Below are positions 7,268-46,500 of a stretch of 64,000 nt of DNA, in pieces. Positions within the stretch are counted from its first letter, which is position 1, and every line of letters begins with the position of its first letter. Source of the DNA: Nemertoderma westbladi (lineage: Eukaryota; Animalia; Xenacoelomorpha). The notes beneath the pieces are model-generated. The model ran no database searches. It had not been told where the DNA came from and was given only the letters and a program-made list of their open reading frames with translations. The position numbers and the translations under genes were made by a program. The stretch covers positions 1-64,000 of the forward strand of contig JAUCBJ010008517.1 of NCBI GenBank assembly GCA_032718475.1, in the 5' to 3' direction.

Positions 7268-7284
7268 TACGACCTGCTACTAAC

Positions 7285-10120: not shown

Positions 10121-10401
10121 TTTGCAGTTTTGTTTCGGTTATTTGGTTGTTGGTGTTATTAGAGTACAGCAGTATTACACGAAAAGGCCTACTGGAATAG
10201 GCCTACCTGCAGTACTGCAGTAGCCTGACTGGAATACTTAGTACATACTGACATAGACTGATAGAGCTGTAGAGCGCGCCGGCGCGGCAGTTAGATTTTA
10301 GTGTGCTGCACCCACACTACACAGCTACAGCACCTGTAACCTGTGTCCATATGCCATACAGTCATAACCACAAATTCAACTGTATATCGACCGGTCTGCG
10401 C

Positions 10402-18342: not shown

Positions 18343-19060
18343 AACGAGCAACAATGAGTATGTGTAACAATGAGCAACAACAAGCAATAATAAAGTACAA
18401 CAGTGAGCAACCATGAACAACAACGAGCAACAATGAACAAAAATGAGCAAAAATGAACAACAACGAGCAACCATGAACAACAACGAGCAACAATGAACAA
18501 AAATGAGCAAAAATGAACAACAACGAGCAACAATGAACAACAATGAGCGACAATGAACAACAATGAGCAACACTGAGCAACAATGAGCAATAATGAGCAT
18601 CAACGAGCAACAATAAAGTACAACAATGAACAACAACAAGCGAAAATGAGCAACAACGAACAACAATGAGCAACACTGAGCAACAATGAGCAATAATGAG
18701 CATCAACGAGCAACAATAAAGTACAACAATGAACAACAACAAGCGAAAATGAGCAACAATGAGCAACCATGAACAACAACGAGCAACAATGAACAAAAAT
18801 GAGCAAAAATGAGCAACAACGAGCAACAATGAACAAAAATGAGCAAAAATGAACAACAACGAGCAACAATGAACAACAATGAGCGACAATGAACAACAAT
18901 GAGCAACACTGAGCAACAATGAGCAATAATGAGCATCAACGAGCAACAATAAAGTACAACAATGAACAACAACAAGCGAAAATGAGCAACAATGAGCAAC
19001 AACGAGCAACATTGTGCAACACTGAGCAACAATGTGCTACAATGAACAAAAATGAGCAAT
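18343..19060. repeat. AAC-rich 7-10-bp minisatellite (aacaatgagc / aacaacgagc) with block duplications
   Basis: Directly visible. It generates the Cys/Leu-rich shadow ORFs on the minus strand. Confidence 0.9.
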
Positions 19061-19915: not shown

Positions 19916-20242
19916 AACGATAAAGCTGTCTGGATATACTGTAGATAAGAGTAATTAGTTATCAGTAAGGGAGCTGTATACCTTAGCGTATGCTATACCG
20001 TATGCTATACCGTATGCTATGTAAATGATATGATAAGCAGTATAGATCCCGATTTTAAACTCATTTTATATGCCGACGACAGTGCTCTTATTTTCTCCCA
20101 TAAAGATCCTATCCATATTTCCCAAAAGTTAAGTGCAGTTCTAGAATCCTGTAATGAGTGGTTGGTTGATAATAAGCTATCCATTCACTACGGTAAGACT
20201 GAAAGTATTTTGTTTGGTTCCAAAAGAAAGTTAATGAATGTA

Positions 20243-21135
20243 CACCATAACCCTTAATACAACAACCATATTTAGGGGGTCGGAGCCCCCCCCCCCCTTA
20301 ATTTTTTTAAAATTTCAATAAAATGCTACGAAATTTGGTATGATGATAGATCGACACCTTTTCTTACTGATGGCCTGGTCGGATTTTTTAATTTATGAGC
20401 TATTTCGATACAACAAGCCGTTAAAAATCGCCTTTTTCGCAATATTTAGCCACCTCCGTCAGGTTTATTTTTCGTCTTTGGAATGAGATCTAGATATCAT
20501 TAGAACCGCCTTCATCTGCAGATTCCGGATATGAAACCCGTTGTAAATTACACCAAGAACTTCCGGAGATATTATCAAAATACTAAGGTGTAAATTTTTG
20601 TGACGTAAATCGCTATAATTCTAATGTTTTATTTACTCAATTCTAGAATATTAATTATGGATATTAAAAAAACAAGATGGAGAGTTTTAAACGCTCAGCT
20701 AAATAATAATTAATATTCTAGAATAAAGACAACAAAACATCAGAATTATAGCGATTTACGTCTCTAAATTTACACATTAGTATTTTGATAATATCTTTAC
20801 CAATTTTTGGTTAAATTTAAAACGGTTTTCAGATTCGGAATCTACAGACGAAGGCGCTTCGAATGATATCTAGATTACATTTCAAAGACGTAAAATAAAG
20901 TCTACGGAGGTGGTTAAACATTGCTAAATAGACATTTTTTAAGGGATTGTTGTATGGAAATAACTGAGAAATTGAAAAATCCGGCCAGGCCACCAGTAAG
21001 AAAAGGTGTAGATCTATCATCATACCTAATTTCGTAGCATTTTATTGATTTATTGAAATTTGAAAAAAATTAGGGGGGGGGGGGGGGGGGGGCTCCGACC
21101 CCATAAAAATGGTTGTTGTATTAAGGGTTATGGTG
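20243..21135. mobile_element. Foldback MITE with TA target duplication (Tc1/mariner-like)
   Basis: TA|CACCATAACCCTTAATACAACAACCAT ... ATGGTTGTTGTATTAAGGGTTATGGTG|TA, with almost the whole element palindromic. Excising it rejoins the LINE frame (KRKLMNV-TKFEV). Confidence 0.9.
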
Positions 21136-21958
21136 TAACTAAGTTTGAAGTCACTAGTAATGGACATAAGATTGAAAATACGTAAAAAGGAAGTTAAATA
21201 TTTAGGCGCCATATTGGATAACTGCTTATCAGGAGAAAGCACAGTGAAAAACTTTTTCTCGAAAGTTAACAGTAGGCTTAGGTTTCTATACAGAAATAAA
21301 AATAGTTTAAACACCGACTCCCGCAAGTTACTTTGCTCTTTAATACAGTACAGTGTCACATTGACTATGCATGCTCTTCTTGGTATGAAGGCTTAACCAA
21401 ACAGCTTAACTGTAAATTACAAGTAGCTCAGAATAAAATAGTACGATTTATTAAAGACTACAAACCTAGGCACCACGTAACTCCAGATGACTTTTCTGAA
21501 TCTGGACTACTTAACTTAGATAGTAGAGTTAAGCAGCTACGCCTTAACCATGTGCATAAAGTGTATAATGGTAAATGTCCCAATTACCTAAAACAAGAAT
21601 TCAACAGAGTACGCGATACACACTCTTACAGTACCAGAGCTAGTGCTTCAAACTTCTACCTCCCGAATTGTAAATCCTTTGAATCTGATACTTTCTTTTT
21701 TAACGGCATTAAAAATTGGAAAGCTTTGCCTAATGAAATTAAAAACCTAAATAATCAACATTCTTTTAAATCAGCAGTTAAATCTCACCTCCGTGTGTAA
21801 TGTAAAAATATGTACAATAGTCCTACAGTAAGTTATTAGTTTATTAATTATTTACTATTTATACTCTAATTACGTTTTATAATAAATAGTTCTGTACATT
21901 ACATCTTTATCGTTGAGTCGGACATTGTCACGCTCTCGGTAAAATTGTACATGTACAT

Positions 21959-22506
21959 TGAATAGGTTTCCAGGATTTGGAAGTCACCAAGAATTAATCG
22001 GAAACTTAAGGTCCGATTATTTAGAGCAGCAGTATTCCAGTACTCCTCTACGGGAGTCCATGCAGGGCTCTAACTGCTGAGGACACCAAATCTCTGGATG
22101 GCACATTCACAAGAATGCTACGCCGGGTTCATTGTGTCAAGTACAATGCACACATCTCCAACCAGACACTATATAACATTGGAGGTGTCTCATTGGTTCC
22201 CCCAAGCTTGACACTAGAACAAAATCGCCTCCGCTTTGCAGGACATTGCTTTCGCCGTGAGGACCAGCCAGTGCATAATCTTGTACTTTGGCAGCCTCAT
22301 GGAGTGAATAAGCATGGTGGACAGCCCATGACTTTCTTGAGACGCATCTTAAAGGACACTGGCCTTAAAGATGCGGATGATCTAGCAAATGTCATGGGTG
22401 ATAGGGAGTTGTGGCGGTGCAATTTTGTTGACAAGCCGGCACAGCATTCCTAAAAATGCAGCTGCAATGCAGCATGCCGATCCTAGTAGTAGTAGTAGTA
22501 GTAGTA
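21959..22506 (+). mobile_element. RTE-clade LINE 3' fragment with (TAG)n tail
   Basis: RLRFAGHCFRR...LVLWQP.G...DTGL...MGDRELWR C-terminal motif. 12-bp TSD gtacatgtacat at 21947-21958 and 22507-22518. Confidence 0.85.
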
Positions 22507-23069
22507 GTACATGTACATAGTGTGATGACGTTTTATATTGGTTTTAGGTTAGCGTAGTGTAATATTGTATTTGTAACCAAGTAACATAAATTGGAAATAA
22601 GCTGCAAAGCTTTAGGGGTAATCCTATATGTTATGTTGGACAATACCTTTCTACCGGTACATTGTTTGGTGTATTTGTTATTGTTTTTACATAATGTATA
22701 AATAAATCTATCTATCTATCTATAGGGCTAAATATAGCAATGCGATGTCAACAAAGACATCATTTAGAAAGTGATATATAAAACTAATTATTGGTAAATC
22801 TAAAAATAGAAATCAATAAATAAAGTAAAAGTAATAGAATTAAATAATTTAAAATTAAATACAAATAAATAAGTATTAATAAATAAAAGAGCAGAGGTGT
22901 CACTTATGACACCCTTTGCACCTCTCGGTGACACTTAGAGAACACTGATGACCCATTGTGTGTCAGGGCGCTAATCAATCTGATTAATTAGGATAATCAA
23001 TTAAACTCTAATTAGGAGTCCTAAGACCCCTATTAGGGTTTAATTGTATTGGTTTAATTAGATTCACTA

Positions 23070-24792
23070 ATTTTATGTCTGGGCCCTTGCACTGTATAAT
23101 TGATTGCTTGAGTCCAATAGATGATTCACGAATTTTATGTCTGGACCCTTGCACTGTATAATTGAGTGTTGTATTCTAATAGAGGATTCACAAATTTTAT
23201 GTCTGGGTCCTTGCACTGTGTAATTGATTGTTTTATTTCAATAGATGATTCATGATTTTATGTCTGGGCCCTTGCACTGTATAATTGATTGTTTGAGTCC
23301 AATAGAGGATTCATGGATTTTATGTCTGGGCCCTTGCACTGTATAATTGATTGTGTGAGTTCAATAGATGATTCAAGGATTTTATGTCTGGGCCCTTGCA
23401 CTGTATAGTATAATTGATTGTGTGAGTCCAATAGATGATTCAAGGATTTTATGTCTGGGCCCTTGCACTGTATAATTGATTGTTTGAGTCCAATAGAGGA
23501 TTCATGGATTTATGTCTGGGCCCTTGCACTGTATAATTGATTGTGTGAGTCCAATAGATGATTCAAGGATTTTATGTCTAGGCCCTTGCACTGTATAATT
23601 GATTGTTTGAGTCCAAGAGATGATTCACGAATTTTATGTCTGGGCCCTTGCACTGTATAATTGATTGTTTGAGTCCAATAGATGATTCACGAATTTTATG
23701 TCTGGGCCCTTGCACTGTATAATTGATTGTTTGAGTCCAATAGATGATTCACGAATTTTATGTCTGGGCCCTTGCACTGTATAATTGATTGTTTGAGTCC
23801 AATAGATGATTCACGAATTTTATGTCTGGGCCCTTGCACTGTGTAATTGATTGTTTTATTCCAATCGATGATTCATGATTTTATGTCTGGGCCCTTGCAC
23901 TGTATAATTGATTGTTTGAGTCCAATAGAGGATTCAAGGATTTTATGTCTGGGCCCTTGCACTGTATAATTGATTGTGTGAGTCCAATAGATGATTCAAG
24001 GATTTTATGTCTGGGCCCTTGCACTGTATAATTGATTGTTTGAGTCCAATAGATGATTCACGAATTTTATGTCTGGGCCCTTGCACTGTATAATTGATTG
24101 TTTGAGTCCAATAGATGATTCACGAATTTTATGTCTGGGCCCTTGCACTGTGTAATTGATTGTTTTATTCCAATCGATGATTCATGATTTTATGTCTGGG
24201 CCCTTGCACTGTATAATTGATTGTTTGAGTCCAATAGAGGATTCAAGGATTTTATGTCTGGGCCCTTGCACTGTATAATTGATTGTGTGAGTCCAATAGA
24301 TGATTCACGAATTTTATGTCTGGGCCCTTGCACTGTATAATTGATTGTTTGAGTCCAATAGATGATTCACGAATTTTATGTCTGGGCCCTTGCACTGTGT
24401 AATTGATTGTTTTATTCCAATCGATGATTCATGATTTTATGTCTGGGCCCTTGCACTGTATAATTGATTGTTTGAGTCCAATAGAGGATTCAAGGATTTT
24501 ATGTCTGGGCCCTTGCACTGTATAATTGATTGTGTGAGTCCAATAGATGATTCAAGGATTTTATGTCTGGGCCCTTGCACTGTATAATTGATTGTTTGAG
24601 TCCAATAGATGATTCATGATTTTATGTCTGGGCCCTTGCACTGTATAATTGATTGTTTGAGTCCAATAGAGGATTCATGGATTTTATGTCTGGACCCTTG
24701 CACTGTATAATTGATTGTTTGAGTCCAATAGATGATTCATGATTTTATGTCTGGACCCTTGCACTGTAAAAATTGAGTGTTGTATTCTAATT
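23070..24792. repeat. ~62-bp minisatellite, ~28 copies
   Basis: Unit ttttatgtctgggcccttgcactgtataattgattgtttgagtccaatagatgattcacgaa. Edge units are more diverged. Confidence 0.95.
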
Positions 24793-24799
24793 TTAATTG

Positions 24800-26936
24800 T
24801 TGTAAAGTGCGTATACATTACAAACCGAGTATCAATAATACTCAACCGCACAAAATTAGAACAATGGAGGTACATCCCCGGACCTCAAAACCAGGCTGAC
24901 ATACCCTCCCGTGGTGCGACCCCTAATGACCTTTTAAATTCAACATGTTGGTTGAATGGGCCCGATTTCCTTTCCAAACCGGAAGACCAATGGCCTCCTC
25001 ATATTACTCCCGAGGAAATGAGGCAAGTCAAAGGTCTAGAAATCGTTAAGCCAAAAACCAGGCCCTCTAAGTCAAAGCTTTTTAAGCCTGTTGACATAGC
25101 AACCAACAACTATGTAAACAAAAGGGTTCCACCTTGGTGTAGTGGTCGCATTGAATTCACATATCCTGTAGGTCGTGGGTTCGATCCTCACATGGGCCAG
25201 GGCAGTTTTCGTTTCGGCACGAATGCTTTAAAGGGACCAGCCAGGGCGCATCTCTGCCTTGCATCCTTAAGTGGTAGCTAAATGAGTACTGGAGTTTCCT
25301 CTGGGGAGTAAAGTTCTGGGGGGACCGCACTGGAAATAAATCGTCAGACTTTGTGCGTAATCCCTGGCCTAGTGGCCGAAGAAAATTTACTTTACTTTAC
25401 TTTTAATTGGTAGTCAAATTCCAAACCTTCCCCCGAATATTGATTTCCAACCCAAAACTGCCGTTAATGACCCGGAAAAATCCACTGACCAACTACTGTT
25501 ACCAAATGTGGATATGGGCTTATCCCAGCTAATATCATGAATCATTATAGCTCGTGGGATAAAATGTGTCGAGCTATAACCATACTGAAACAACTCTTTC
25601 ACTATCGATACAGTACTAAGACCGTACCTGTGATAGGCTTAACTGCTAATGAGGTAGACAAAATCAAATTTACAGTTATTAAGAGTTTCACAAAGACTGG
25701 AGAAGCCTGAGAATTATAACCAGCTCAGTGTTGACCCCCTAACTCCATTGGCGGACAAATTTTCCAGTATAATGATAAGGAGGTCGCCTTACTAACGCTC
25801 CGATCTCTAGAGATACTATGTTTCCCATACAGTATTAATATTCGACCCGGAAATTCAGATTAAGTTGATACAGGACGTTCACTACCGACTCTATCACGCC
25901 GGGAGGGAACATATATTAAGCGAAATCAGAACGCGATATTTCCTGGTACACCCCCGCGCAGCTCTCAACCAAATATTACGAAACTGTATACCTTGCAAAA
26001 GGATTTATAGCAAGCCGATGACTCAACTAGAAGCGGCGCTCCCTAGGGAACGAGTCGAATGTTACCAACCCCCGTTTACCCACACCGGCGTAGATCTCTT
26101 CGGACCCTTCGAAGTCAGGCGCGCCCGTACAATGGTGAAAAGATGGTGTGTCATCTTTGTTTGCATGACCTTTCGAGCCATTTACTTAGATATGGTTTTA
26201 ACGATATGTCAATGAAAAGTTTTATCCTTTGCCTGAGAAGACAAATCGGTCGATTTGGTACCAGCCGCACTATGAGATCCGACCAGGGAACGAATTTCGT
26301 AGGCGCCAACAAGGAAATCACTAATACACGAAGATCGCGTTCCACCATATCATTCCATGTAAAGCCTATCTAACAGATGAGCTACTCCGAACATTCTTAG
26401 AGGAAATAGCGAGTTATTTAAATGATAGGCCTCTCTTACCTGTTTCATCTAATCCACAAGCCATGGAGCCACTAACACCGTCCCATTTTATGCTGAGGAA
26501 ACCCGTAACCATGTTACCGAAATCCAAACCACAGGACGGTTATGAGCTGCTGAGACGCACCTGGCAAATGATGCAACTACTATCTCGTCGATTTGCTACA
26601 CATTTCGAAAGACACTACTTACCGTCGGTCCAGCTCAGAACCAAATGGTTTTCTAAGAAGGAAAATGTATCAGTTGGTGATATTGTACTCTTAGTGGATC
26701 AAGATCAACCTAGAAAAAACTGGGAAACAGGACGTAGAACAGAAATTCATCAAAGAAAAGATGGTTTGGTACGCTCAGTTGAACTGGCTATTTGGAGAGC
26801 TACACCCAAACCGAAAGTACACTATTTCAACCGACCCATTGGACGCCTTTGTTTATTAGAACTGGCAAGGGAACGTTCTGATAACTACGGGCAACAGAGA
26901 GTTAGACCAAGCAGTCTGACATACAAACTTGAGTAA
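24800..26936 (+). mobile_element. Decayed BEL/Pao LTR retrotransposon pol (end of RNase H, HHCC finger, integrase, C-terminal domain)
   Basis: WRYIPGPQNQADIPSRG, HYRLYHAG...C.PC, PPFTHTGVDLFGPF, SDQGTNFVGA, PLTPSHF, GDIVLL, DGLVRSV. Multiple stops and frameshifts. Confidence 0.85.
25124..25405 (+). mobile_element. tRNA-derived SINE inserted into the BEL element
   Basis: A-box-like TGGTGTAGTGG and B-box GGTTCGATCC. The 3' part resembles the L2-type tail and ends in (tttac)n. Confidence 0.7.
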
Positions 26937-27583
26937 CGTCTTGTAGTAGGTTACGATTGAGTGTGTAATTATTATTAACCACTTGGTATAACGTAGGTGT
27001 TAGTATTAGACTATGGTGCGCACATAGCAACAAAACCTAGGCCTACTTATGTTAATTGTACGTTGTATATGATCGCAACAAGTGCAACAATTTAATTTAA
27101 GGGTAAATTATTCGACTTAAAACTTAAATAATACAAAATAAGTGACTAATTACTAACGACAATACTCAATCGTGGAAGCGGATTGTGCGACGTTATAGGC
27201 ATAGAAATATGCATTTTTCAAAAAATTTTACGAAATTAAACTTAAACAAATAATAATTAATAATCACAAATAAAATTAATATCGCCATAAATGCCCAAAT
27301 AACTATTACAGTAGTTACTAATGTGAAATAAGTGTGAGAGGTGAGCATTCTAATTTCTCAATATGTCACGGAACAATTAATTAAATAACAACGAAATAAC
27401 GTGTTTCCCAGGAAACATAGTTAGAACTCGTACAACTGTAAATGCAATTGCTTAACACAGCTTGTATGGGAAAGGTAACATTGTTATCATGGATACAGCA
27501 ACAGTGACATTTTGGTAAATGTTTAAAGTTAAGCGTTTTTGAACAGTATTTTGAACGAATGTTAACCAAAAGTGCACAAATAA

Positions 27584-28636
27584 CAAGGTGTACTAAATAA
27601 CAGGTCATGCAGCGAGCGGATTGCTGAAATTAGCGGAGGCCGATCGTTTCCCTATTTATGGCACTATTTTCATAATATTTCCTTAGAAACCTCTCTTATG
27701 CAACTTTGGTTAGGTGGATATGATGACTAGGATTCATAGAAATGTAATAAACAGTCTCTCTGGAATTTTTATCTTGTAGTTGCCAAGGTAACCGGGTGCA
27801 AAGTTCAAACTTTGCGCGCCTGTATTTCAAGGCGACAATGGATTCTTCCCTTGAGATTTGGTAGGTGACTAAAGGGAATAAAAGTCTATCAAAATATTTT
27901 ACATTTGAATTTGTTTACATTCCCGTTGCCATGGAAATAAGTAGAATGAAAAATTTTAACAATTGTCTACCAATTCTATAAAACACCATTTTTATTCGGT
28001 TTGTCAGTCTAAATAATAAGTTAAAATTTCCAACATTTTATTTTATAATTCGTCAATTGTGAATCATATTTCTAAAAGTCAATATTTGCAAATAAACTAA
28101 ACTGTCCAATCAGAGAGCAAGACCTGTTATAGCATGATTGTGACATTCCAGAATATTAAATTTCGGTTAGCAATTATTAGAAATAAAGGTCAGCCACCAG
28201 GCATGTTTGTTGAAAATTATAGAAGTAGTAAATAGTAGCCCAATTTCTATCTGGCAGTCATAATGGGAAATCATCGTAATTCCCGTCACCATGGAAACGG
28301 GATTGAAAAATAAATTAAATGTAAAATAATTTGATAGACTTTTATTCCCTTTACTCATACACCAAATATCAAGAACAGAATCCCTTGTCGTTTTTTATTA
28401 CAGGCGCTCGATTTTGAACTTTGAACCCGATTACCTTGGCAACTACAAGATAAAAATTCCAGAAAGACATTTTATTACATTTCTATGAACCCTAGTCATC
28501 ATATCCACCTAACCAAAGTTGCATGAGAGGTTTCTAAGAAAATATTATGAAAATAGTGTCATAAATAAGGAAACGATCGGCCTCCGCTAATTTCAGCAAT
28601 CCGCTCGCTGCATGACCTGTTATTTAGTACACCTTG
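27584..28636. mobile_element. MITE with long TIRs, P-element-like termini
   Basis: CAAGGTGTACTAAATAACAGG ... CCTGTTATTTAGTACACCTTG with about 240-bp inverted arms. Perfect 8-bp TSD acaaataa at 27576-27583 and 28637-28644. Confidence 0.85.
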
Positions 28637-30414
28637 ACAAATAAGCACCAAATTAAGCTAAATAGAGTGAAATACCCATAAATAGTGTGAAATTTAAGGT
28701 ACACACAATTGTCCAACCCTCCATAGATACTATAGTCGCAGTAGATCAGTGATGGCTCCGGGCCAATCCCCCGTCTCCCTGGCTTGAAGAGAGTTTAGAA
28801 TTTAGCCACGATATTTCTGTACCGCTGGTAGTTGCAAACTCGATTCTCGCCATAAGGGATTGACCAGGGACTGCGCCGCGGCGTGTATCGGCGCCTTTGG
28901 GGAGGTGACGCTCGCCTACCCCCCTTTATACGCTCCTCTACTCGAACTCATAATGTCTCGATCTTCAAAGACACCCCCCTCCGTAAAGCGACGTTCCCGG
29001 AAACAACATTCTGAGATGATGGATACGATGACGGCTCACTATACCGGCGAATCCACCCAGCTCGCTCAAAGTATGGAACCGCGTATAGATCCTTCGGGAA
29101 ACTACATCGAACCGTCGATGAACCCCGAACAGCGCGACATCGAACAACAATATCGTGAGTTTATTCTCAAATACGCCGAACGCGACGGAAGTTATAACAG
29201 CTTCCTCACTACTGGTCACCCTATGGACTTACGGGACATTGATGACCAACACGTCGAATGGGACATGAAGATGTTCAAACTTCATGTTGAGCGGCAACGT
29301 AGCAACGAGACTCAAACACAACACGACTATTAGATTTGCGTTGACATTTGATATTGTACTGTAACTTCCTCTTACCTCATCTGGGCAACTGGTAATCTGG
29401 ACAATTGTAATAGATAAGTGTGTTGCTCTATCTCTGACTTACTAAATAATTAATATATGGCGATATACCAGATCATTAATGTAAGAAAGATCCTTATTAT
29501 TAATTGTATCACGATTGACAGTTGTCATAAGTTAATTACGATAGAGACATTCATATAATTATACATAAAGACAAGTCACTATACGTTTCTCCTAAAGGGA
29601 AACACAGATACCACACTTGAATCCTTACAGAATTAATTAGTCAGCCATTTGCTTGTTAAACTGTGTTGTCAAACCCTCCCGGTATCGTATCTCAGTTAAA
29701 TACAATAGATAATCAAATACCGTATTGAACCAAATAAGTTATAAAGTAAATCAATATATGAGAGGAAGGCAAAGGGGAAGTAACCGATACAGTAAGCGGC
29801 CCTTGTTGACAGGTACACTAGCGCAATCCCGTTTATTGTGTCAGACCAGCAGTTTTGGGACGTCATAAATGCATAGATTCTCCGCACGGAATAATACAAG
29901 TCAAAAATATACGAAATTGAGATTGAAGGAACATAATTTATTAAAAGCGCTAACAATACAGATGGGCTGAGTCTAACAAAAACAATAAACGAATTAGTAT
30001 CTGTAAAGGTTATAAGATAGGAATGAGCGCTATAAAACACTTGACAAGGAGAAATAAAAAAAATACAAAATTCTTCATAAAATTTAAAAAAAATTCGACC
30101 GAAAAGTAAAAAGCTGGTATTCTTTCTCTACATTGGCGTTCAGAGTTAATGCGAGAATTCAGAAATTGGAAATGGGTTATTTTTTTAAATTGCCGATATA
30201 ATGCAAGAAATTGGATAGCATTACTAGGGAGGCGAGTAGAGAACATTATAAATTGAGAATGTGAATTATAGATTAATACGCTCAGATCAGAAGATACCTG
30301 ACAATCTTGGGCCCCGAGGTACCGGTAGTCAAAAACTTCAATATTGAATTGAGATTTAATATCTTGAACGAAATGTTATCATTGTATCATTGAACACACT
30401 AAATTATTAATAAC

Positions 30415-31612: not shown

Positions 31613-31792
31613 TTAGAAACCGTATTCGGATGGGGAGCGAGACCCCACGTCTAGGTGCTGCTTCAAAGTCCGCAGAGCGACCCTGGCTCGTTGCCTAGCT
31701 ACAGTCATAATATCGTCTGCTAACTGGTGGTCGTTGGTGTAGGAAACTCTGGCGGAGTCGAATATGTCTCGAACAAATCCGATAACTTCCTC
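31613..31792 (-). CDS. MIGA: Mitoguardin terminal coding exon (EEVIGFVRDIFD...LADDIM...YGF*)
   Basis: Acceptor TTTATTTGTTCAG|GAG, phase 0. Resembles the recalled MIGA2 C-terminus (QIVQYLRDMFDLDNVRYTS..ALADDIL). Confidence 0.85.
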   Translation of the reverse strand, partial: EEVIGFVRDIFDSARVSYTNDHQLADDIMTVARQRARVALRTLKQHLDVGSRSPSEYGF

Positions 31793-33468: not shown

Positions 33469-33648
33469 CTTGAAGTAAGAACAGAGATAGTGTACCGGCC
33501 CGGCTGCTGATTCTGTAGCGAGGAACCCCCAGGCTAGGGTGGGAGTAACGGCTTCAGTAACCGAGTAGAAGCGGGACATAAACCCGTCACGGACCGGGAG
33601 ATTACGACGTTTAGTGGAGATAACGGTCCAGGTAGCGGTGGACAGGGC
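33469..33648 (-). CDS. MIGA: Mitoguardin penultimate exon (ALSTATWTVISTKRRNLPVRDGFMSRFYSVTEAVTPTLAWGFL...CSYFK), 180 nt
   Basis: Acceptor CTTTTATTTCAG|GCC and donor AAG|GTTGGT, phase 0 at both ends. Matches recalled MIGA2 ALATACWSVLKAKRR..PDGFISHFYSVSEHVSPVLAFGFLG. Confidence 0.9.
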
Positions 33649-36600
33649 CTGAAATAAAAGGATAACGGTCCAGATAGCTGTGGACAGAGCCTGGAATAAA
33701 GGATAACGGTCCAGGTAGCGGTGGACAGAGCCTGGAATAAAGTATAACGGTCCAGGTAGCGGTGGACAGGGCCTGAAATAAAAGGATAACGGTCCAGGTA
33801 GCAGTGGACAGAGCCTGGAATAAAGGATAACGGTCCAGGTAGCGGTGGACAGAGCCTGGAATAAAGGATAACGGTCCAGGTAGCGGTGGACAGGGCCTGA
33901 AATAAAAGGATAACGGTCCAGGTAGCAGTGGACAGAGCCTGGAATAAAGGATAACGGTCCAGGTAGCGGTGGACAGAGCCTGGAATAAAAGGAAAACGGT
34001 CCAGGTAGCGGTGGACAGAGCCTGAATTAAAGGATAACGGTCCAGGTAGCGGTGGACAGAGCCTGAAATAAAAGGATAACGGTCCAGGTAGCGGTGGACA
34101 GGGCCTGAAATAAAAGGATAACGGTCCAGATAGCTGTGGACAGAGCCTGAATTAAAGGATAACGGTCCAGGTAGCAGTGGACAGAGCCTGGAATAAAAGT
34201 ATAACGGTCCAGGTAGCGGTGGACAGAGCCTGAAATAAAGGATAACTGTCCAAATAGCAGTGGACAGAGCCTGGAATAAAAGTATAACGGTCCAGGTAGC
34301 GGTGGACAGAGCCTGAAATAAAAGGATAACGGTCCAGATAGCAGTGGACAAAGACTGGAATAAAGGATAACGGTCCAGGTAGCAGTGGACAGAGCCTGGA
34401 ATAAAAGTATAACGGTCCAGGTAGCGGTGGACAGAGCCTGAAATAAAGGATAACTGTCCAAATAGCAGTGGACAGAGCCTGGAATAAAAGTATAACGGTC
34501 CAGGTAGCGGTGGACAGGGCCTGAAATAAAAGGATAACGGTCCAGATAGCTGTGGACAGAGCCTGAATTAAAGGATAACGGTCCAGGTAGCAGTGGACAG
34601 AGCCTGGAATAAAAGTATAACGGTCCAGGTAGCGGTGGACAGAGCCTGAAATAAAGGATAACTGTCCAAATAGCAGTGGACAGAGCCTGGAATAAAAGTA
34701 TAACGGTCCAGGTAGCGGTGGACAGAGCCTGAAATAAAAGGATAACGGTCCAGATAGCAGTGGACAAAGACTGGAATAAAGGATAACGGTCCAGGTAGCA
34801 GTGGACAGAGCCTGGAATAAAAGTATAACGGTCCAGGTAGCGGTGGACAGAGCCTGAAATAAAGGATAACTGTCCAAATAGCAGTGGACAGAGCCTGGAA
34901 TAAAAGTATAACGGTCCAGGTAGCGGTGGACAGAGCCTGAAATAAAAGGATAACGGTACAGATAGCAGTGGACAGAGCCTGAATTAAAGGATAACGGTCC
35001 AGGTAGCAGTGGACAGAGCCTGAAATAAAGGATAACTGTCCAAATAGCAGTGGACAGAGCCTGGAATAAAAGTATAACGGTCCAGGTAGCGGTGGACAGA
35101 GCCTGAAATAAAGGATAACGGTACAGATAGCAGTGGACAGAGCCTGAATTAAAGGATAACGGTCCAGGTAGCAGTGGACAGAGCCTGAAATAAAGGATAA
35201 CGGTACAGATAGCAGTGGACAGAGCCTGAATTAAAGGATAACGGTCCAGGTAGCAGTGGACAGAGCCTGAATTAAAGGATAACGGTCCAGGTAGCAGTGG
35301 ACAGAGCCTGAAATAAAGGATAACTGTCCAAATAGCAGTGGACAGAGCCTGGAATAAAAGTATAACGGTCCAGGTAGCGGTGGACAGAGCCTGAAATAAA
35401 GGATAACTGTCCAAATAGCAGTGGACAGAGCCTGGAATAAAAGTATAACGGTCCAGGTAGCGGTGGACAGGGCCTGAAATAAAAGGATAACGGTCCAGAT
35501 AGCTGTGGACAGAGCCTGAATTAAAGGATAACGGTCCAGGTAGCAGTGGACAGAGCCTGGAATAAAAGTATAACGGTCCAGGTAGCGGTGGACAGAGCCT
35601 GAAATAAAGGATAACTGTCCAAATAGCAGTGGACAGAGCCTGGAATAAAAGTATAACGGTCCAGGTAGCGGTGGACAGAGCCTGAAATAAAAGGATAACG
35701 GTCCAGATAGCAGTGGACAAAGACTGGAATAAAGGATAACGGTCCAGGTAGCAGTGGACAGAGCCTGGAATAAAAGTATAACGGTCCAGGTAGCGGTGGA
35801 CATAGCCTGAAATAAAGGATAACTGTCCAAATAGCCGTGGACAGAGCCTGGAATAAAAGTATAACGGTCCAGGTAGCGGTGGACAGGGCCTGAAATAAAA
35901 GGATAACGGTCCAGATAGCTGTGGACAGAGCCTGAATTAAAGGATAACGGTCCAGGTAGCAGTGGACAGAGCCTGGAATAAAAGTATAACGGTCCAGGTA
36001 GCGGTGGACAGAGCCTGAAATAAAGGATAACTGTCCAAATAGCAGTGGACAGAGCCTGGAATAAAAGTATAACGGTCCAGGTAACGGTGGACAGAGCCTG
36101 AAATAAAAGGATAACGGTCCAGGTAGCAGTGGACAAAGACTGGAATAAAGGATAACGGTCCAGGTAGCAGTGGACAGAGCCTGGAATAAAAGTATAACGG
36201 TCCAGGTAGCGGTGGACAGAGCCTGAAATAAAGGATAACTGTCCAAATAGCAGTGGACAGAGCCTGGAATAAAAGTATAACTGTCCAGGTAGCGGTGGAC
36301 AGAGCCTGAAATAAAAGGATAACGGTCCAGATAGCAGTGGACAGAGCCTGAATTAAAGGATAACGGTCCAAATAGCAGTGGACAGAGCCTGGAATAAAAG
36401 TATAACGGTCCAGGTAGCGGTGGACAGAGCCTGAAATAAAAGGAAAACGGTCCAAATAGCAGTGGACAGAGCCTGGAATAAAAGTATAACGGTCCAGGTA
36501 ACAGTGGACAGAGCCTGGAATAAAAGTATAACAGTCCAGGTAGCAGTGGACAAAGACTGGAATAAAGGATAACGGTCCAGGTAGCAGTGGACAGAGCCTG

Positions 36601-39600
36601 GAATAAAAGTATAACGGTCCAGGTAGCAGTGGACAGAGCCTGGAATAAAAGTATAACGGTCCAGATAGCTGTGGACAAAGACTGGAATAAAGGATAACGG
36701 TCCAGGTAGCAGTGGACAGAGCCTGGAATAAAAGTATAACGGTCCAGGTAGCAGTGACAACGACTGGAATAAAGGATAACGGTCCAGGTAGCAGTGGACA
36801 AAGACTGGAATAAAGGATAACGGTCCAGGTAGCAGTGGACAGAGCCTGGAATAAAGGATAACGGTCCAGGTAGCAGTGGACAAAGACTGGAATAAAGGAT
36901 AACGGTCCAGGTAGCAGTGGACAGAGCCTGGAATAAAGGATAACGGTCCAGGTAGCAGTGGACAAAGACTGGAATAAAGGATAACGGTCCAGGTAGCAGT
37001 GGACAAAGACTGGAATAAAGGATAACGGTCCAGGTAGCAGTGGACAGAGCCTGGAATAAAGGTATAACGGTCCAGGTAGCAATGGGCAGAGCCTGGAATA
37101 AAAGGAAAACGGTCCAGGTAACGGTGGACAGAGCCTGAAATAAAAGGATAACGGTCCAGATGCTGTGGACAGAGCCTGAATTAAAGGATAACGGTCCAGG
37201 TAGCAATGGGCAGAGCCTGGAATAAAAGGAAAACGGTCCAGGTAACGGTAACGGTGGACAGAGCCTGAAATAAAAGGATAACGGTCCAGATAGTTGTGGA
37301 CAGAGCCTGAATTAAAGGATAACGGTCCAGGTAGCAATGGGCAGAGCCTGGAATAAAAGGAAAACGGTCCAGGTAACGGTGGACAGAGCCTGAAATAAAA
37401 GGATAACGGTCCAGATGCTGTGGACAGAGCCTGAATTAAAGGATAACGGTCCAGGTAGCAATGGGCAGAGCCTGGAATAAAAGGAAAACGGTCCAGGTAA
37501 CGGTGGACAGAGCCTGAAATAAAAGGATAACGGTCCAGATAGTTGTGGACAGAGCCTGAATTAAAGGATAACGGTCCAGGTAGCAATGGGCAGAGCCTGG
37601 AATAAAAGGAAAACGGTCCAGGTAACGGTGGAAAGAGCCTGAAATAAAAGGATAACGGTCCAGATAGCTGTGGACAGAGCCTGAATTAAAGGATAACGGT
37701 CCAGGTAGCAATGGGCAGAGCCTGGAATAAAAGGAAAACGGTCCAGGTAACGGTGGACAGAGCCTGAAATAAAAGGATAACGGTCCAGATAGCTGTGGAC
37801 AGAGCCTGAATTAAAGGATAACGGTCCAGGTAGCAGTGGACAGAGCCTGGAATAAAAGTATAACTGTCCAGGTAGCGGTGGACAGAGCCTGAAATAAAAG
37901 GATAACGGTCCAGATAGCTGTGGACAGAGCCTGAATTAAAGGATAACGGTCCAGGTAGCAATGGGCAGAGCCTGGAATAAAAGGAAAACGGTCCAGGTAA
38001 CGGTGGACAGAGCCTGAAATAAAAGGATAACGGTCCAGATAGCTGTGGACAGAGCCTGAATTAAAGGATAACGGTCCAGGTAGCAATGGGCAGAGCCTGG
38101 AATAAAAGGAAAACGGTCCAGGTAACGGTGGACAGAGCCTGAAATAAAAGGATAACGGTCCAGATAGCTGTGGACAGAGCCTGAATTAAAGGATAACGGT
38201 CCAGGTAGCAGTGGACAGAGCCTGGAATAAAAGTATAACTGTCCAGGTAGCGGTGGACAGAGCATGAAATAAAAGGATAACGGTCCAGATAGCAGTGGAC
38301 AGAGCCTGAATTAAAGGATAACGGTCCAAATAGCACTGGACAGAGCCTGGAATAAAATTATAACGGTCCAGGTAGCAGTGGACAGAGCCTGGAATAAAAG
38401 TATAACAGTCCAGGTAGCAGTGGACAAAGACTGGAATAAAGGATAACGGTCCAGGTAGCAGTGGACAGAGCCTGGAATAAAAGTATAACGGTCCAGGTAG
38501 CAGTGGACAGAGCCTGGAATAAAAGTATAACGGTCCAGATAGCTGTGGACAAAGACTGGAATAAAGGATAACGGTCCAGGTAGCAGTGGACAGAGCCTGG
38601 AATAAAAGTATAACGGTCCAGGTAGCAGTGGACAACGACTGGAATAAAGGATAACGGTCCAGGTAGCAGTGGACAAAGACTGGAATAAAGGATAACGGTC
38701 CAGGTAGCAGTGGACAGAGCCTGGAATAAAGGATAACGGTCCAGGTAGCAGTGGACAAAGACTGGAATAAAGGATAACGGTCCAGGTAGCAGTGGACAGA
38801 GCCTGGAATAAAGGATAACGGTCCAGGTAGCAGTGGACAAAGACTGGAATAAAGGATAACGGTCCAGGTAGCAGTTGACAAAGACTGGAATAAAGGATAA
38901 CGGTCCAGGTAGCAGTGGACAGAGCCTGGAATAAAGGTATAACGGTCCAGGTAGCAATGGGCAGAGCCTGGAATAAAAGGAAAACGGTCCAGGTAACGGT
39001 GGACAGAGCCTGAAATAAAAGGATAACGGTCCAGATAGCTGTGGACAGAGCCTGAATTAAAGGATAACGGTCCAGGTAGCAATGGGCAGAGCCTGGAATA
39101 AAAGGAAAACGGTCCAGGTAACGGTGGACAGAGCCTGAAATAAAAGGATAACGGTCCAGATAGCTGTGGACAGAGCCTGAATTAAAGGATAACGGTCCAG
39201 GTAGCAATGGGCAGAGCCTGGAATAAAAGGAAAACGGTCCAGGTAACGGTGGACAGAGCCTGAAATAAAAGGATAACGGTCCAGATAGCTGTGGACAGAG
39301 GCTGAATTAAAGGATAACGGTCCAGGTAGCAATGGGCAGAGCCTGGAATAAAAGGAAAACGGTCCAGGTAACGGTGGACAGAGCCTGAAATAAAAGGATA
39401 ACGGTCCAGATAGCTGTGGACAGAGCCTGAATTAAAGGATAACGGTCCAGGTAGCAATGGGCAGAGCCTGGAATAAAAGGAAAACGGTTGGGGTAACGGT
39501 GGACAGAGCCTGAAATAAAAGGATAACGGTCCAGATAGCTGTGGACAGAGCCTGAATTAAAGGATAACGGTCCAGGTAGCAGTGGACAGAGCCTGGAATA

Positions 39601-40870
39601 AAAGTATAACTGTCCAGGTAGCGGTGGACAGAGCATGAAATAAAAGGATAACGGTCCAGATAGCAGTGGATAGAGCCTGAATTAAAGGATAACGGTCCAA
39701 ATAGCAGTGGACAGAGCCTGGAATAAAATTATAACGGTCCAGGTAGCAGTGGACAGAGCCTGGAATAAAGGTATAACGGTCCAGGTAGCAATGGACAAAG
39801 ACTGGAATAAAGGATAACGGTCCAGGTAGCAGTGGACAAAGACTGGAATAAAGGATAACGGTCCAGGTAGCAGTGGACAGAGCCTGGAATAAAAGTATAA
39901 CGGTCCATGTAGCAGTGGACAAAGACTGGAATAAAGGATAACGGTCCAGGTAGCAGTGGACAAAGACTGGAATAAAGGATAACGGTCCAGGTAGCAGTGG
40001 ACAAAGACTGGAATAAAGGATAACGGTCCAGGTAGCAGTGGACAAAGACTGGAATAAAGGATAACGGTCCAGGTAGCAGTGGACAAAGACTGGAATAAAG
40101 GATAACGGTCCAGGTAGCAGTGGACAAAGACTGAAATAAAGGATAACGGTCCAGGTAGCAGTGGACAAAGACTGGAATAAAGGATAACGGTCCAGGTAGC
40201 AGTGGACAAAGACTGGAATAAAGGATAACGGCCCAGGTAGCAGTGGACAGAGCCTGGAATAAAGGATAACGGTCCAGGTAGCAGTGGATAAAGACTGGAA
40301 TAAAGGATAACGGTCCAGGTAGCAGTGGACAAAGACTGGAATAAAGGATAACGGTCCAGGTAGCAGTGGACAAAGACTGGAATAAAGGATAACGGTCCAG
40401 GTAGCAGTGGACAAAGACTGGAATAAAGGATAACGGTCCAGGTAGCAGTGGACAGAGCCTGGAATAAAAGGAAAACGGTCCAGGTAGCGGTGGACAGAGC
40501 CTGAAATAAAGGATAACGGTCCAGGTAGCAGTGGACAAAGACTGGAATAAAGGATAACGGTCCAGGTAGCAGTGGACAAAGACTGAAATAAAGGATAACG
40601 ATCCAGGTAGCAGTGGACAAAGACTGGAATAAAGGATAACGGTCCAGGTAGCAGTGGACAGAGCCTGAAATAAAAGGATAACGGTCCAGGTAGCAGTGGA
40701 CAGAGCCTGCAATAAAAGGATAACGGTCCAGGTAGCAGTGGACAGAACCTGCAATAAAAGGATAACGGTCCAGGTAGCAGTGGACAAAGACTGGAATAAA
40801 GGATAACGGTCCAGGTAGCAGTGGACAGAGACTGGAATAAAATGATGACAGTCAAGGTAGTCGTGGACAG
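33619..40870 (-). repeat. 41/42-bp tandem array (~175 units) made of the splice acceptor plus the first 30 nt of the MIGA penultimate exon
   Basis: Minus-strand unit CTTT(T)ATTYCAG|GCTCTGTCCACYGCTACCTGGACCGTTATC. The last unit runs directly into unique exon sequence. Confidence 0.95.
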
Positions 40871-41483
40871 AAGAAGTCGTGGGTATATGAGTTGTTTTAT
40901 AAGGCCATAAGGACAAAAATTGCAGTCATAAAATAACGCATCGGAATCATCAAGTGTATTTCCAGCAACAGCAGGCAAATCTATGTGGCATTACAGCAAA
41001 TAACTTTAGAAACTGTATAATAATTATTCTCCTTAAGAGTTAAAGTGTAATAGCAAGAAACATGTTTCAAGGGATTTCGTCCTGCAAACGAATACTACAG
41101 CTGTCAATTCTCGCCTCTATTGCAATCCTAATAAATTGAGGTCAGATATTTAATATTTAAACGCAGTAAATATGGTAAATGGTTATCTGTTGTTTATTAT
41201 TTATTCCGAGAATGGGTAAGAATCAGAACAAACCAATCATAATGATTTACTTATAAAAAGTAACAGGGCGGCAAATTTAAACAAGTTTGCTACTTAAAAA
41301 ATCTGCCTTTAATTAACTGTAATGATTTAGGAAGTTCGAAGGCAGATCAGCTCAAACCATAAACTTCAGTAATTTAGTCAAGCGACAAGGACAACACTGT
41401 GCACTTTTGTTTACCCATGCAAACAGTTGTAAGCACCGCGATAATCGTCAACATTAATCGAATCGAATATTGATTCCAACCAT

Positions 41484-41662: not shown

Positions 41663-42880
41663 ATGGGCGACAATTCCAGAGAATTTGTAAATAAACTCTC
41701 TGATTATCCGAAATCGCGATGCAGTGAAAACGAAATTATAACCGACCAATTTAAATCGGAAGTATCTTCATTCATTTCTCGGCAACTTATATCCTTGAGT
41801 AGAAAGATAAACAGCGACAGTAAAGACCACAAAGATACGTCAATATACACCGGGGTATCTGGATATGGGTTGCTCTATTTCATACTATCCGAGAAATACT
41901 TTACCGGCGCGCAAAGTAGGGAATACCTAGAGAAATCCTTAACTATCATCGATAAACCTTTACGAGGTTTAAACGGACGTCGGTACACCTTCCTCTGTGG
42001 AGACGCCGGCCCTCTGGCATTAGGCGCCGTGCTATACCATAAACTGGATCGCCAACAACAAAGCTTACAATGCGTAGCGCAACTGGAGCAGATTTCGCAT
42101 ATCGTAAACGAAGAAGATCGTTCCGATATTCCAAACGAGATTCTATACGGTAGAGCTGGATATCTGTATAGTCTGTTATTCGTGAAACGATATATCGGTG
42201 AGAATTCTATAAAAAGTGATATTATCGATAAAACTGTTAACGCGATTCTTTATTCCGGTTACCAATTCGCGACAAAGAATAAACTAGCGACCCCGTTGAT
42301 GTACGAATGGCACGACAAAGGATATTTAGGGGCGGCCCATGGTCTCAGCGGGATTATCCACACTCTGATATTATCCGGTAGGATATCCGGCGGTAATTCC
42401 ACCAAAGATATTCTACTGTCTACCGACTTCCTTATCGATAAGCAGTTCCCGTCTGGTAACCTGCCCTCGTCTCTAGGCAACGACAAGGATCGTCTGGTGC
42501 AATGGTGCCACGGTGCACCGGGGGTGGTGTTCACGCTTCTAGAGGTCTATAAACTAACCTCCTTAGATAAATACCTCGCGGCGGCGCTTCAATGCGGACA
42601 AGTTGTCTGGGAGTGGGGACTCGTAACCAAGGGTTACGGTCTGTGTCACGGCGTGGCCGGTAACGCCTACACCTTCCTAGCGTTGTACCGCGTTACCATG
42701 GATACCAAGCACCTGCACCGAGCGTGCCAGTTCGCCAGATGGTGCCTCGATCACGGCACCCACGGATGCCGCACCCCAGACAGACCCAACTCGATGTACG
42801 AAGGTCTCGCGGGGACTATCGTCTTCATGGCCGATATGTTAAACCCAAAAGAAGCAGGATTCCCCGGATTTCAGATTTAA
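41663..42880 (+). CDS. LANCL: LanC-like protein (LanCL1/LanCL2 type), 405 aa, intronless CDS
   Basis: SIYTG..G, TFLCGDAGPLA, EILYGRAGYL, YLGAAHG, LVQWCHGAPG, KGYGLCHGVAGNAY, TPDRP.S.YEGLAG, FPGF. Zn-ligand Cys/Cys/His and the GxxHG His are intact. First ATG is at 41663 (the ORF track starts at a TTG). Candidate AATAAA at 43173. Confidence 0.95.
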   Translation: MGDNSREFVNKLSDYPKSRCSENEIITDQFKSEVSSFISRQLISLSRKINSDSKDHKDTSIYTGVSGYGLLYFILSEKYFTGAQSREYLEKSLTIIDKPLRGLNGRRYTFLCGDAGPLALGAVLYHKLDRQQQSLQCVAQLEQISHIVNEEDRSDIPNEILYGRAGYLYSLLFVKRYIGENSIKSDIIDKTVNAILYSGYQFATKNKLATPLMYEWHDKGYLGAAHGLSGIIHTLILSGRISGGNSTKDILLSTDFLIDKQFPSGNLPSSLGNDKDRLVQWCHGAPGVVFTLLEVYKLTSLDKYLAAALQCGQVVWEWGLVTKGYGLCHGVAGNAYTFLALYRVTMDTKHLHRACQFARWCLDHGTHGCRTPDRPNSMYEGLAGTIVFMADMLNPKEAGFPGFQI

Positions 42881-43424: not shown

Positions 43425-43563
43425 CCGTTGTTTAAAGGAATCGCTTAACCATCGGTTTTGGATGGCTGCGACGACAGCCGATGGTGGATTCTCTAAGTCA
43501 TCGAAGGAATCCATTAAAACGAAGTCGAGAACAATATCGTAGAACGAAAGAGAAACAACTCCT
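43425..43563 (-). CDS. MIGA: Mitoguardin internal exon ([R]GVVSLSFYDIVLDFVLMDSFDDLENPPSAVVAAIQNRWLSDSFKQR)
   Basis: Acceptor TGTTTTACAG|A (an alternative AG lies 2 nt downstream) and donor CGG|GTTAGT, phase 0. Strongly resembles the recalled MIGA motif RGVVCMSFFDIVLDFILMDAFEDLENPP.SV.AV..NRWLSDSFKE. Confidence 0.92.
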
Positions 43564-46500
43564 CTGTAAAACAAACAATATCGTAGAACGAAAGAGAAAC
43601 AACTCCTCTGTAAAACAAACAATATCGTAGAACGAAAGAGAAACAACTCCTCTGTAAAACAAACAATATCGTAGAACGAAAGAGAAACAACTCCTCTGTA
43701 AAACAAACAATATCGTTGAATGAAAGAGAAACAACTCCTCTGTAAAACAAACAATATCGTAGAATGACAGAGAAACAACTCCTCTGTAAAACAAACAATA
43801 TCGTAGTACGAAAGAGAAACAACTCCTCTGTAAAACAAACAATATCGTAGTACGAAAGAGAAACAACTCCTCTGTAAAACAAACAATATCGTAGAACGAA
43901 AGAGAAACAACTCCTCTGTAAAACAAACAATATCGTAGAACGAAAGAGAAACAACTCCTCTGTAAAACAAACAATATCGTAGAACGAAAGAGAAACAACT
44001 CCTCTGTAAAACAAACAATATCGTAGAACGACAGAGAAACAACTCCTCTGTAAAACAAACAATATCGTAGTACGAAAGAGAAACAACTCCTCTGTAAAAC
44101 AAACAATATCGTAGAACGAAAGAGAAACAACTCCTCTGTAAAACAAACAATATCGTAGAACGAAAGAGAAACAACTCCTCTGTAAAACAAACAATATCGT
44201 AGAACGAAAGAGAAACAACTCCTCTGTAAAACAAACAATATCGTAGAACGACAGAGAAACAACTCCTCTGTAAAACAAACAATATCGTAGAACGAAAGAG
44301 AAACAACTCCTCTGTAAAACAAACAATATCATAGAACGACAGAGAAACAACTCCTCTGTAAAACAAACAATATCGTAGTACGAAAGAGAAACAACTCCTC
44401 TGTAAAACAAACAATATCGTAGAACGAAAGAGAAACAACTCCTCTGTAAAACAAACAATATCGTAGTACGAAAGAGAAACAACTCCTCTGTAAAACAAAC
44501 AATATCGTAGAACGAAAGAAAAACAACTCCTCTGTAAAACAAACAATATCGTAGAACGAAAGAAAAACAACTCCTCTGTAAAACAAACAATATCGTAGAA
44601 CGACAGAGAAACAACTCTGTAAAACAAACAATATCGTAGAACGACAGAGAAACAACTCCTCTGTAAAACAAACAATATCGTAGAACGAAAGAAAAACAAC
44701 TCCTATGTAAAACAAACAATATCGTAGAACGACAGAGAAACAACTCCTCTGTAAAACAAACAATATCGTAGAACGAAAGAGAAACAACTCCTCTGTAAAA
44801 CAAACAATATCGTAGAACGAAAGAGAAACAACTCCTCTGTAAAACAAACAATATAGTAGAACGAAAGAAAAACAACTCCTATGTAAAACAAACAATATCG
44901 TAGAACGACAGAGAAACAACTCCTCTGTAAAACAAACAATATCGTAGAACGAAAGAGAAACAACTCTGTAAAACAAACAATATCGTAGAACGACAGAGAA
45001 ACAACTCCTCTGTAAAACAAACAATATCGTAGAACGAAAGAAAAACAACTCCTATGTAAAACAAACAATATCATAGAACGAAAGAGAAACAACTCCTCTG
45101 TAAAACAAACAATATCGTAGAACGAAAGAAAAACAACTCCTATGTAAAACAAACAATATCGTAGAACGAAAGAAAAACAACTCCTATGTAAAACAAACAA
45201 TATAGTAGAACGAAAGAAAAACAACTCCTATGTAAAACAAACAATATCGTAGAACGACAGAGAAACAACTCCTCTGTAAAACAAACAATATTGTAGAACG
45301 AAAGAGAAACAACTCTGTAAAACAAACAATATCGTAGAACGAAAGAAAAACAACTCCTATGTAAAACAAACAATATCGTAGAACGACAGAGAAACAACTC
45401 CTCTGTAAAACAAACAATATCGTAGAACGAAAGAGAAACAACTCTGTAAAACAAACAATATCGTAGAACGACAGAGAAACAACTCCTCTGTAAAACAAAC
45501 AATATCGTAGAACGAAAGAAAAACAACTCCTATGTAAAACAAACAATATCGTAGAACGAAAGAGAAACAACTCCTCTGTAAAACAAACAATATCGTAGAA
45601 CGAAAGAAAAACAACTCCTATGTAAAACAAACAATATAGTAGAACGAAAGAAAAACAACTCCTATGTAAAACAAACAATATCGTAGAACGACAGAGAAAC
45701 AACTCCTCTGTAAAACAAACAATATCGTAGAACGAAAGAGAAACAACTCTGTAAAACAAACAATATCGTAGAACGACAGAGAAACAACTCCTCTGTAAAA
45801 CAAACAATATCGTAGAACGAAAGAAAAACAACTCCTATGTAAAACAAACAATATCGTAGAACGACAGAGAAACAACTCCTCTGTAAAACAAACAATATCG
45901 TAGAACGAAAGAAAAACAACTCCTATGTAAAACAAACAATATCATAGAACGACAGAGAAACAACTCCTCTGTAAAACAAACAATATCGTAGAACGAAAGA
46001 AAAACAACTCCTCTGTAAAACAAACAATATCGTAGAACGACAGAGAAACAACTCCTCTGTAAAACAAACAATATCGTAGAACGAAAGAGAAACAACTCCT
46101 CTGTAAAACAAACAATATCGTAGAACGACAGAGAAACAACTCCTCTGTAAAACAAACAATATCGTAGAATGACAGAGAAACAACTCCTCTGTAAAACAAA
46201 CAATATCGTAGAACGACAGAAAAACAACTCATCTGTAAAACAAACAATATCGTAGAACGACAGAGAAACAACTCCTCTGTAAAACAAACAATATCGTAGA
46301 ACGAAAGAAAAACAACTCCTCTGTAAAACAAACAATATCGTAGAACGACAGAGAAACAACTCCTCTGTAAAACAAACAATATCGTAGAACGAAAGAGAAA
46401 CAACTCCTCTGTAAAACAAACAATATCGTAGAACGACAGAGAAACAACTCCTCCGTAAAACAAACAATATTGTAGAACGAAAGAAAAACAACTCCTCTGT

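Follow-up and report, generated by a model that had tools for sequence, protein, structure and literature searches.

We analysed a window of 64,000 nucleotides (nt) from the xenacoelomorph Nemertoderma westbladi (assembly GCA_032718475.1, contig JAUCBJ010008517.1, positions 1 to 64,000 of the forward strand). The minus strand of the window carries the last three coding exons of a mitoguardin gene, referred to here as exons A, B and C in transcript order. The introns preceding exons A and B each end in a long tandem array of intron-end/exon-start junctions; the true junction is the last copy of its array, and the copies upstream of it are termed decoys, numbered from the exon outwards. The main features are as follows (a slash marks a splice boundary; TRF, Tandem Repeats Finder):

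43530-64000, minus strand: array 2, upstream of exon A; TRF, 44-nt period, at least 465 decoys over 20.4 kb, continuing past the window edge.
43425..43563, minus strand: mitoguardin exon A; 139 nt (1 nt plus 46 codons), acceptor TTACAG/AGG, donor CGG/GTTAGT.
40832..40871, minus strand: decayed outermost copy of array 1; 32/40 identities to decoy 1.
33619-40871, minus strand: array 1, upstream of exon B; 173 decoy copies and the true copy (TRF, 174.7 copies).
33469..33648, minus strand: mitoguardin exon B; 180 nt, true acceptor TTTCAG/GCC at 33648, donor AAG/GTTGGT.
31613..31792, minus strand: coding part of mitoguardin exon C, ending at the stop codon; ordinary acceptor without an array, Pfam Miga 498-535.

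Based on the Pfam Miga profile (PF10265), exon A corresponds to positions 395-439 (E 7e-23) and exon B to positions 441-497 (E 7e-19). When the three exons are joined there is no stop, and they follow each other as consecutive stretches of the profile (395-439, 441-497, 498-535). Miga 395-535 is readable across A-B-C, and the terminal copy of each array is thus the splice junction of an intact gene. Exon A shows at most 78% identity to 24 homologues. Exons A and B join in phase 0. The initial annotation had named 43425 as the donor; exon A does end there, but 43425 is its last base and the donor GT occupies 43424-43423. No insertion or deletion is found at the A/B junction in 22 of the 24 homologues, and the other two (P0123 and P0125) diverge exactly at this point and resemble gene calls reading into an intron, which suggests, as far as the alignment goes, that the A/B boundary is an old intron.

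In array 1 the unit combines a 12-nt intron end with 29-30 nt from the start of exon B. The 174 intron-end/exon-start junctions lie at 33648 (true), 33690 (+42), 33731 (+83) and so on to 40831, and the true one comes last in transcript order. Concerning unit length, 89 decoys are of 41 nt, 83 of 42 nt and one of 48 nt. The AG is kept in 171 of the 173 decoys, and both AG-less units are distal. The units belong to 54 distinct types with a higher-order period of 125 nt (three units), and runs of unit types are repeated (10 units at lag 23). The number of differences from the true unit rises along the array from 3.5 to 6.8, and no further copy is found beyond the decayed one at 40832..40871. Within array 1 the motif TTGAC at -21 of an AG is present only in this outermost copy. 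The possibility that this motif is the ancestral branch point, left at the distal end of the array (40831, -21), was rejected, as it is a mutation in a decayed copy and not unique intron sequence.

The unit of array 2 is unrelated to that of array 1, and consists of a 13-nt intron end and the 31-nt head of exon A. Up to the window edge there are 466 units (443 of 44 nt, 21 of 41 nt and 2 others) of 47 distinct types; the distal end lies outside the window, so the copy number of 465 is a lower bound. Runs of unit types are repeated here as well, with up to 30 units at lag 41. As many as 141 decoys, including the first three, are identical to the true unit. The true acceptor of exon A and its decoy 1 are identical from -109 to +34 (109 nt upstream and 34 nt downstream), and therefore the local acceptor sequence cannot choose the exon A site. 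The CAG is kept in 410 of the 465 decoys; the 55 without it include none of the first 25 units, which argues that competing decoys are not purged near the exon. Purging of AGs beside the exon is seen in neither array, as AG-less units are not clustered near the exon in either.

No 14-mer of decoy unit 1 of array 1 or of the reference unit of array 2 occurs elsewhere in the window, so the arrays are not chance matches. Two successive mitoguardin introns end in tandem arrays of their own intron-end/exon-start junction, and the long repeated runs of unit types show block duplication inside the arrays. It could be argued that the arrays, or their size, arise from mis-assembly, since long tandem arrays are hard to assemble and the data come from a single assembly of one haplotype. 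However, the 54 and 47 unit types, the ordered blocks of shared variants, the gradient of differences and the decayed outer copy point to real turnover, and we consider an artefact highly improbable; the copy numbers may still be off.

Concerning the coding outcome of the decoys, two of those in array 1 stand apart:

33649..33690, minus strand: decoy 1 of array 1; 42 nt, in frame, would add ALSTAIWTVILLFQ.
33649..33855, minus strand: decoy 5 of array 1, acceptor 33855; would add 69 residues in a 387-nt exon.

The junction listing of array 1 agrees with the initial annotation in placing the acceptor next to 33648 at 33690, exactly 42 nt upstream, and in making the following unit 41 nt long (33731, +83) and frameshifting. 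Use of 33690 would, as was also proposed there, insert 14 amino acids (ALSTAIWTVILLFQ) in frame and without a stop ahead of exon B, in the conserved Miga region. Decoy 1 carries in addition an extra CAG at -29 (33677), the use of which would shift the frame, and it can be told from the true unit by exon positions +3, +12 and +17. A full-length protein is obtained from only two of the 206 AGs of array 1, namely 33690 (+14 amino acids) and 33855 (+69 amino acids). The other 204 all lead to a stop that precedes the B/C junction by more than 50 nt. This is the distance set by the usual rule for nonsense-mediated decay (NMD); such a position is necessary for NMD but not specific to it. Being in frame is seldom sufficient: a variant unit near 34026 contains a TAA that interrupts the reading frame, so that 66 of the 68 in-frame AGs also give premature-stop products, and frame sorting consequently matters only within the first nine units.

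The decoy offsets modulo 3 are flat (58/60/55). When the unit order of array 1 was shuffled (3000 trials), the first decoy was productive in 49% of the trials (P 0.49), and the two productive decoys observed compare with a median of 4 in the shuffled arrays (P(n>=2) 0.72). An in-frame first decoy is what chance gives and is by itself not notable. The first decoy of array 2 (44 nt) shifts the frame, and the first in-frame unit-type decoy is the third (+44 amino acids), the phase being deduced from the reading frame as the upstream exon lies outside the window. Recurrent variants in the exon-derived part of the unit are synonymous in 7 of 14 cases in array 1 (0.30 expected) and in 4 of 14 in array 2 (0.26 expected); there is no consistent synonymous excess across both arrays that would indicate coding constraint on the units. 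We see no sign of selection on the frame or on the alternative segment. The arithmetic behind the proposal that the mixture of 41- and 42-nt units decides which decoys yield productive isoforms and which become NMD targets is sound: the frame is kept with decoy 1 and lost with decoy 2, and the stop rule applies to 204 of the 206 AGs. As a statement about function the proposal is not supported, given the closure of most in-frame AGs by the TAA, the flat offsets, the shuffles, the frameshifting first decoy of array 2 and the location of the insert inside a conserved helix.

This location is based on an alignment with zebrafish Miga2 (PDB 7X15), in which exon A corresponds to chain residues 114-158 and exon B to 160-206; the numbering offset of 306 was checked on V430, R454, R456, W457, K476, R480 and F488 (PMC9239997). 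In the numbering of zebrafish Miga2 the A/B junction falls between T465 and A466, with the R454/R456/W457 loop on one side and residues K476/R480 of helix alpha8 on the other. According to the mutant data given in PMC9239997, mutants of the R454/R456/W457 or the K476/R480 surface bind membranes less well, and their lipid transfer drops to 15-60%. In the predicted structure of the oyster homologue P0121 the junction is found at the sixth residue of a helix of 21 residues (395-415), in a part where the predicted local distance difference test score (pLDDT) is about 80-90; the helix assignment rests on this prediction together with 7X15. Based on these models, helix alpha8, part of the membrane-docking surface, would be interrupted by the insert. 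The +14-residue product is likely to be poor at membrane docking, because the insert puts L-L-F-Q-A in place of S-T-K-R-R. Fourteen residues correspond to about four helical turns, so the helix register would nearly be kept and folding is possible.

These results bear directly on the idea of a selected isoform switch, in which 33690 is used to make a +14-residue isoform and the pattern of 41- and 42-nt units has been shaped to sort the products. Such a switch would profit from 33690 being in frame and stop-free, from an extended exon of just 222 nt and from an insert that would nearly preserve the helix register. The same insert, however, would enter a conserved helix between residues needed for membrane binding and lipid transfer, at a junction where 22 of the 24 homologues have no insertion or deletion. 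Moreover, chance alone puts the first decoy in frame in about half of the cases, array 1 shows no enrichment of productive decoys and array 2 begins out of frame. The predicted accessibility of the AG at 33690 (0.007, vs 0.04 at 33648) also speaks against it, weakly, given the 0.014 of acceptor C. Overall, we regard the switch as quite improbable.

Splice signals were judged by simple motif counts. The pyrimidine fraction is 0.67-0.71 in true sites and decoys alike, and the U content of the pre-mRNA strand is 37% in one array and 51% in the other. Hundreds of evenly spaced acceptors with such U-rich tracts might suggest that the introns are removed stepwise through the decoys, by recursive splicing or micro-exon ladders, and that the arrays are helpful. 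This would require a regenerated donor (AG/GT), and the array units read AG/GC, AG/TC or AG/AG. A single weak YAG/GT is found in the 27.6 kb of both arrays (at 40748, GTTCTG, 5/9), and the best donor-like match in either array reaches 5 of 9 consensus positions vs 7 of 9 for both real donors, which makes stepwise removal very improbable. As each unit has only 12-13 nt of intron, the branch point must sit in exon-derived repeat sequence.

Concerning RNA structure, the predicted AG accessibility is 0.007 at 33690, 0.04 at 33648 and 0.014 at the control acceptor of exon C. The predicted opening of 0.04 at 33648 compares with 0.003-0.032 at 31 of the first 33 decoys and 0.23 at the other two. Pairing of CCTGGA with TCCAGG could cover the TTCCAG decoys of array 1. 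Masking of the decoys by RNA structure was nevertheless rejected as the main mechanism, based on the two decoys at 0.23, the control acceptor at 0.014 and the lack of contrast in array 2.

The explanation we favour is that the decoys of both arrays leave with the intron and only the last copy is joined, so that each array is a silent or nearly silent mirage, a kind of minisatellite described in lancelets; by analogy with those cases, this is probably correct. The arrays may have originated in a duplication of about 42 nt across each acceptor, followed by slippage or unequal crossing-over, and the difference between 41 and 42 nt would be a drifting one-base indel beside a T tract. The last copy would be picked by exon definition, which recognises the whole exon, any enhancers and the donor bound by U1, 139 or 180 nt away. 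We infer that exon definition is the likeliest selector, because only the downstream sequence (the rest of the exon and the donor) is unique to the last copy. The decoys would offer a 30-nt exon stub only, and an exon defined from any of them beyond the nearest two or three would exceed 300 nt. Size would thus exclude the far decoys of array 1 (more than 300 nt from decoy 3), and unique exon sequence would have to decide for the nearest ones. Most products of occasional splicing to near decoys would be removed by NMD, and the +14-residue product would be a minor error.

Several points weigh against this explanation. The use of the last copy only is taken from other species, in which the published mirages are far smaller (3-7 copies in BflGb6 and PGBD5, according to the figures given for these genes, compared with 173 and at least 465 in mitoguardin). 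With the nearest decoys, exon B would measure 222 or 263 nt and exon A 183, 227 or 271 nt, all of them ordinary lengths, and exon size alone therefore cannot exclude these decoys. The decoys are transcribed before the true site and would be favoured by 5'-to-3' scanning, and early duplication experiments disagreed in their outcome, according to the summary in PMC1557585. In the human F7 minisatellite, taken up below, the array, as described in the same source, is one of donors with 5-9 sites and the true site first, whereas in mitoguardin acceptors are repeated and the true site stands at the end of hundreds of copies. Finally, no yUnAy branch motif is found at -14 to -46 of either array-flanked true acceptor (33649-33693 and 43564-43608); the array-free acceptor of exon C has two, at -30 and -18, and in this respect the true sites show no apparent superiority.

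Some of these observations would also suit a leaky array, in which near decoys take a real share of splicing, mostly ending in NMD, and the dose of mitoguardin is tuned by how long the array is or how its first units are ordered, an effect for which there was no selection. The near decoys equal, or nearly equal, the true sites in sequence (for exon A from -109 to +34) and give exons of ordinary size, 204 of the 206 AGs of array 1 satisfy the 50-nt stop rule, and the true sites are without a consensus branch motif. Evidence against leakage of this kind comes from the AG-less units, which are not gathered beside the exon as purging would have it, and from the lancelet mirages, reported in the passages concerned of PMC3087553 and PMC3902484 without disturbance of splicing. 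We therefore hold a leaky array to be unlikely. It is less likely still that the near decoys act as a live dial, where decoy 1 would give the +14-residue product with a split docking helix, the transcripts of the other near decoys would decay, and unequal crossing-over at the border of the exon would shift the isoform ratio and the dose from one individual or cell to another. If this improbable reading were true, the lineage would grow acceptor mirages to satellite scale, with more than 630 decoys in 27 kb of one pre-mRNA.

The favoured explanation, in which the decoys are silent or nearly so, makes the locus an extreme natural test of acceptor choice among identical copies, opposing exon definition to first-come scanning. 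If 173 or 465 decoys competed on equal terms, less than 1% of splicing would reach the true exon, yet the exons look intact, and decoys are transcribed from 7 to over 20 kb ahead of the true site. The identical decoys of array 2, the first of which matches the true acceptor over 143 nt, provide such a test in particular.

The unique part of the A/B intron contains one further gene, nested in antisense orientation, which we regard as a bystander:

41663..42880, plus strand: intronless LanC-like (LANCL) frame; 405 amino acids, Pfam LANC_like E 4e-76.

The LANCL frame is intact, with GAAHG, WCHG and LCHG motifs and an AATAAA near 43173. The protein is at most 50% identical to its best 120 matches, among which no protein is labelled as lancelet, and in a tree of 44 of the 120 listed matches it forms a long branch beside deuterostomes with weak support (0.625). 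It may be a retrocopy that has taken the place of its parent gene, or else the lineage may be intron-poor. In the rest of the window, two very long open frames on the minus strand (7280-10138 and 1455-2771; 952 and about 438 amino acids) belong to a CUB/Sushi membrane protein, which ends in a transmembrane-like stretch and an NPxY-like motif and has unusually few introns for its type. A 62-nt tandem repeat at 23061-24781 (28 copies) edges frames at 24736-29333, which presumably derive from a BEL/Pao long terminal repeat (LTR) retrotransposon. A 10-nt AACAATGAGC-type repeat at 18366-19059 (68 copies) is strongly A-skewed. No exon was found adjoining either the 62-nt array at 23061-24781 or the 10-nt array at 18366-19059. 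Frames or fragments at 14019-15512, 19990-21800 and 22025-22453, all on the plus strand, were recognised by motif as what we take to be reverse transcriptase of the long interspersed nuclear element (LINE) type; that at 14019-15512 is open for 497 amino acids.

Among known systems, the closest are the mirage minisatellites of lancelets, the term for which reportedly goes back to Canestro et al. 2002, as cited by others. Judged from their sequence, both mitoguardin arrays are of this kind, and it is size alone that makes them stand out. They consist of head-to-tail units spanning a host intron-exon boundary, most copies keep the splice dinucleotide, and the repeated unit blocks, with the decayed boundary copy of array 1, indicate concerted turnover. 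In amphioxus, mirages have been described in Adh3, troponin C, the globins BflGb6 and BflGb9, and PGBD5, with splicing given as regular in the parts of PMC3087553 and PMC3902484 that deal with it. From the descriptions in these sources, the resemblance is close: the BflGb6 mirage is likewise a tandem repeat of an intron 3' end and exon start, the unit of each mitoguardin array lies within the range of the Adh3 mirage unit (10-72 bp), most amphioxus copies keep the AG, with concerted turnover and a decayed outer copy, and in PGBD5 more than one boundary of one gene is affected. Neither acceptor arrays as large as those of mitoguardin nor mirages outside lancelets were found in the literature searched, a search outside which most subscription journals lay.

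In human F7, a 37-bp variable number tandem repeat (VNTR) in intron 7 contains in-frame pseudo-donors that are unused, according to the account in PMC1557585. It is likewise a minisatellite over an exon-intron boundary, with identical pseudo-sites, some of them in frame, that are described there as silent by position. A 5'-to-3' scan of the F7 type cannot, however, explain the choice in mitoguardin, because there the true acceptor comes last. Short intragenic duplications carrying splice signals are also the basis of the Rogers model of intron gain by tandem duplication of a proto-splice site (as outlined in PMC3265369), where they are removed with the intron, and of the tandem-repeat-driven exon/intron changes in human paralogues (as presented in PMC2812944). 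Mitoguardin differs from both in that no new intron has been formed, the units have no AGGT donor and the A/B intron is apparently old. At the protein level, a 14-residue insertion at the A/B junction is absent from the homologues compared (n=24). As in zebrafish Miga2 (7X15), the mitoguardin exons encode the C-terminal lipid-binding domain, with N-R-W and the basic residues of helix alpha8 largely kept.

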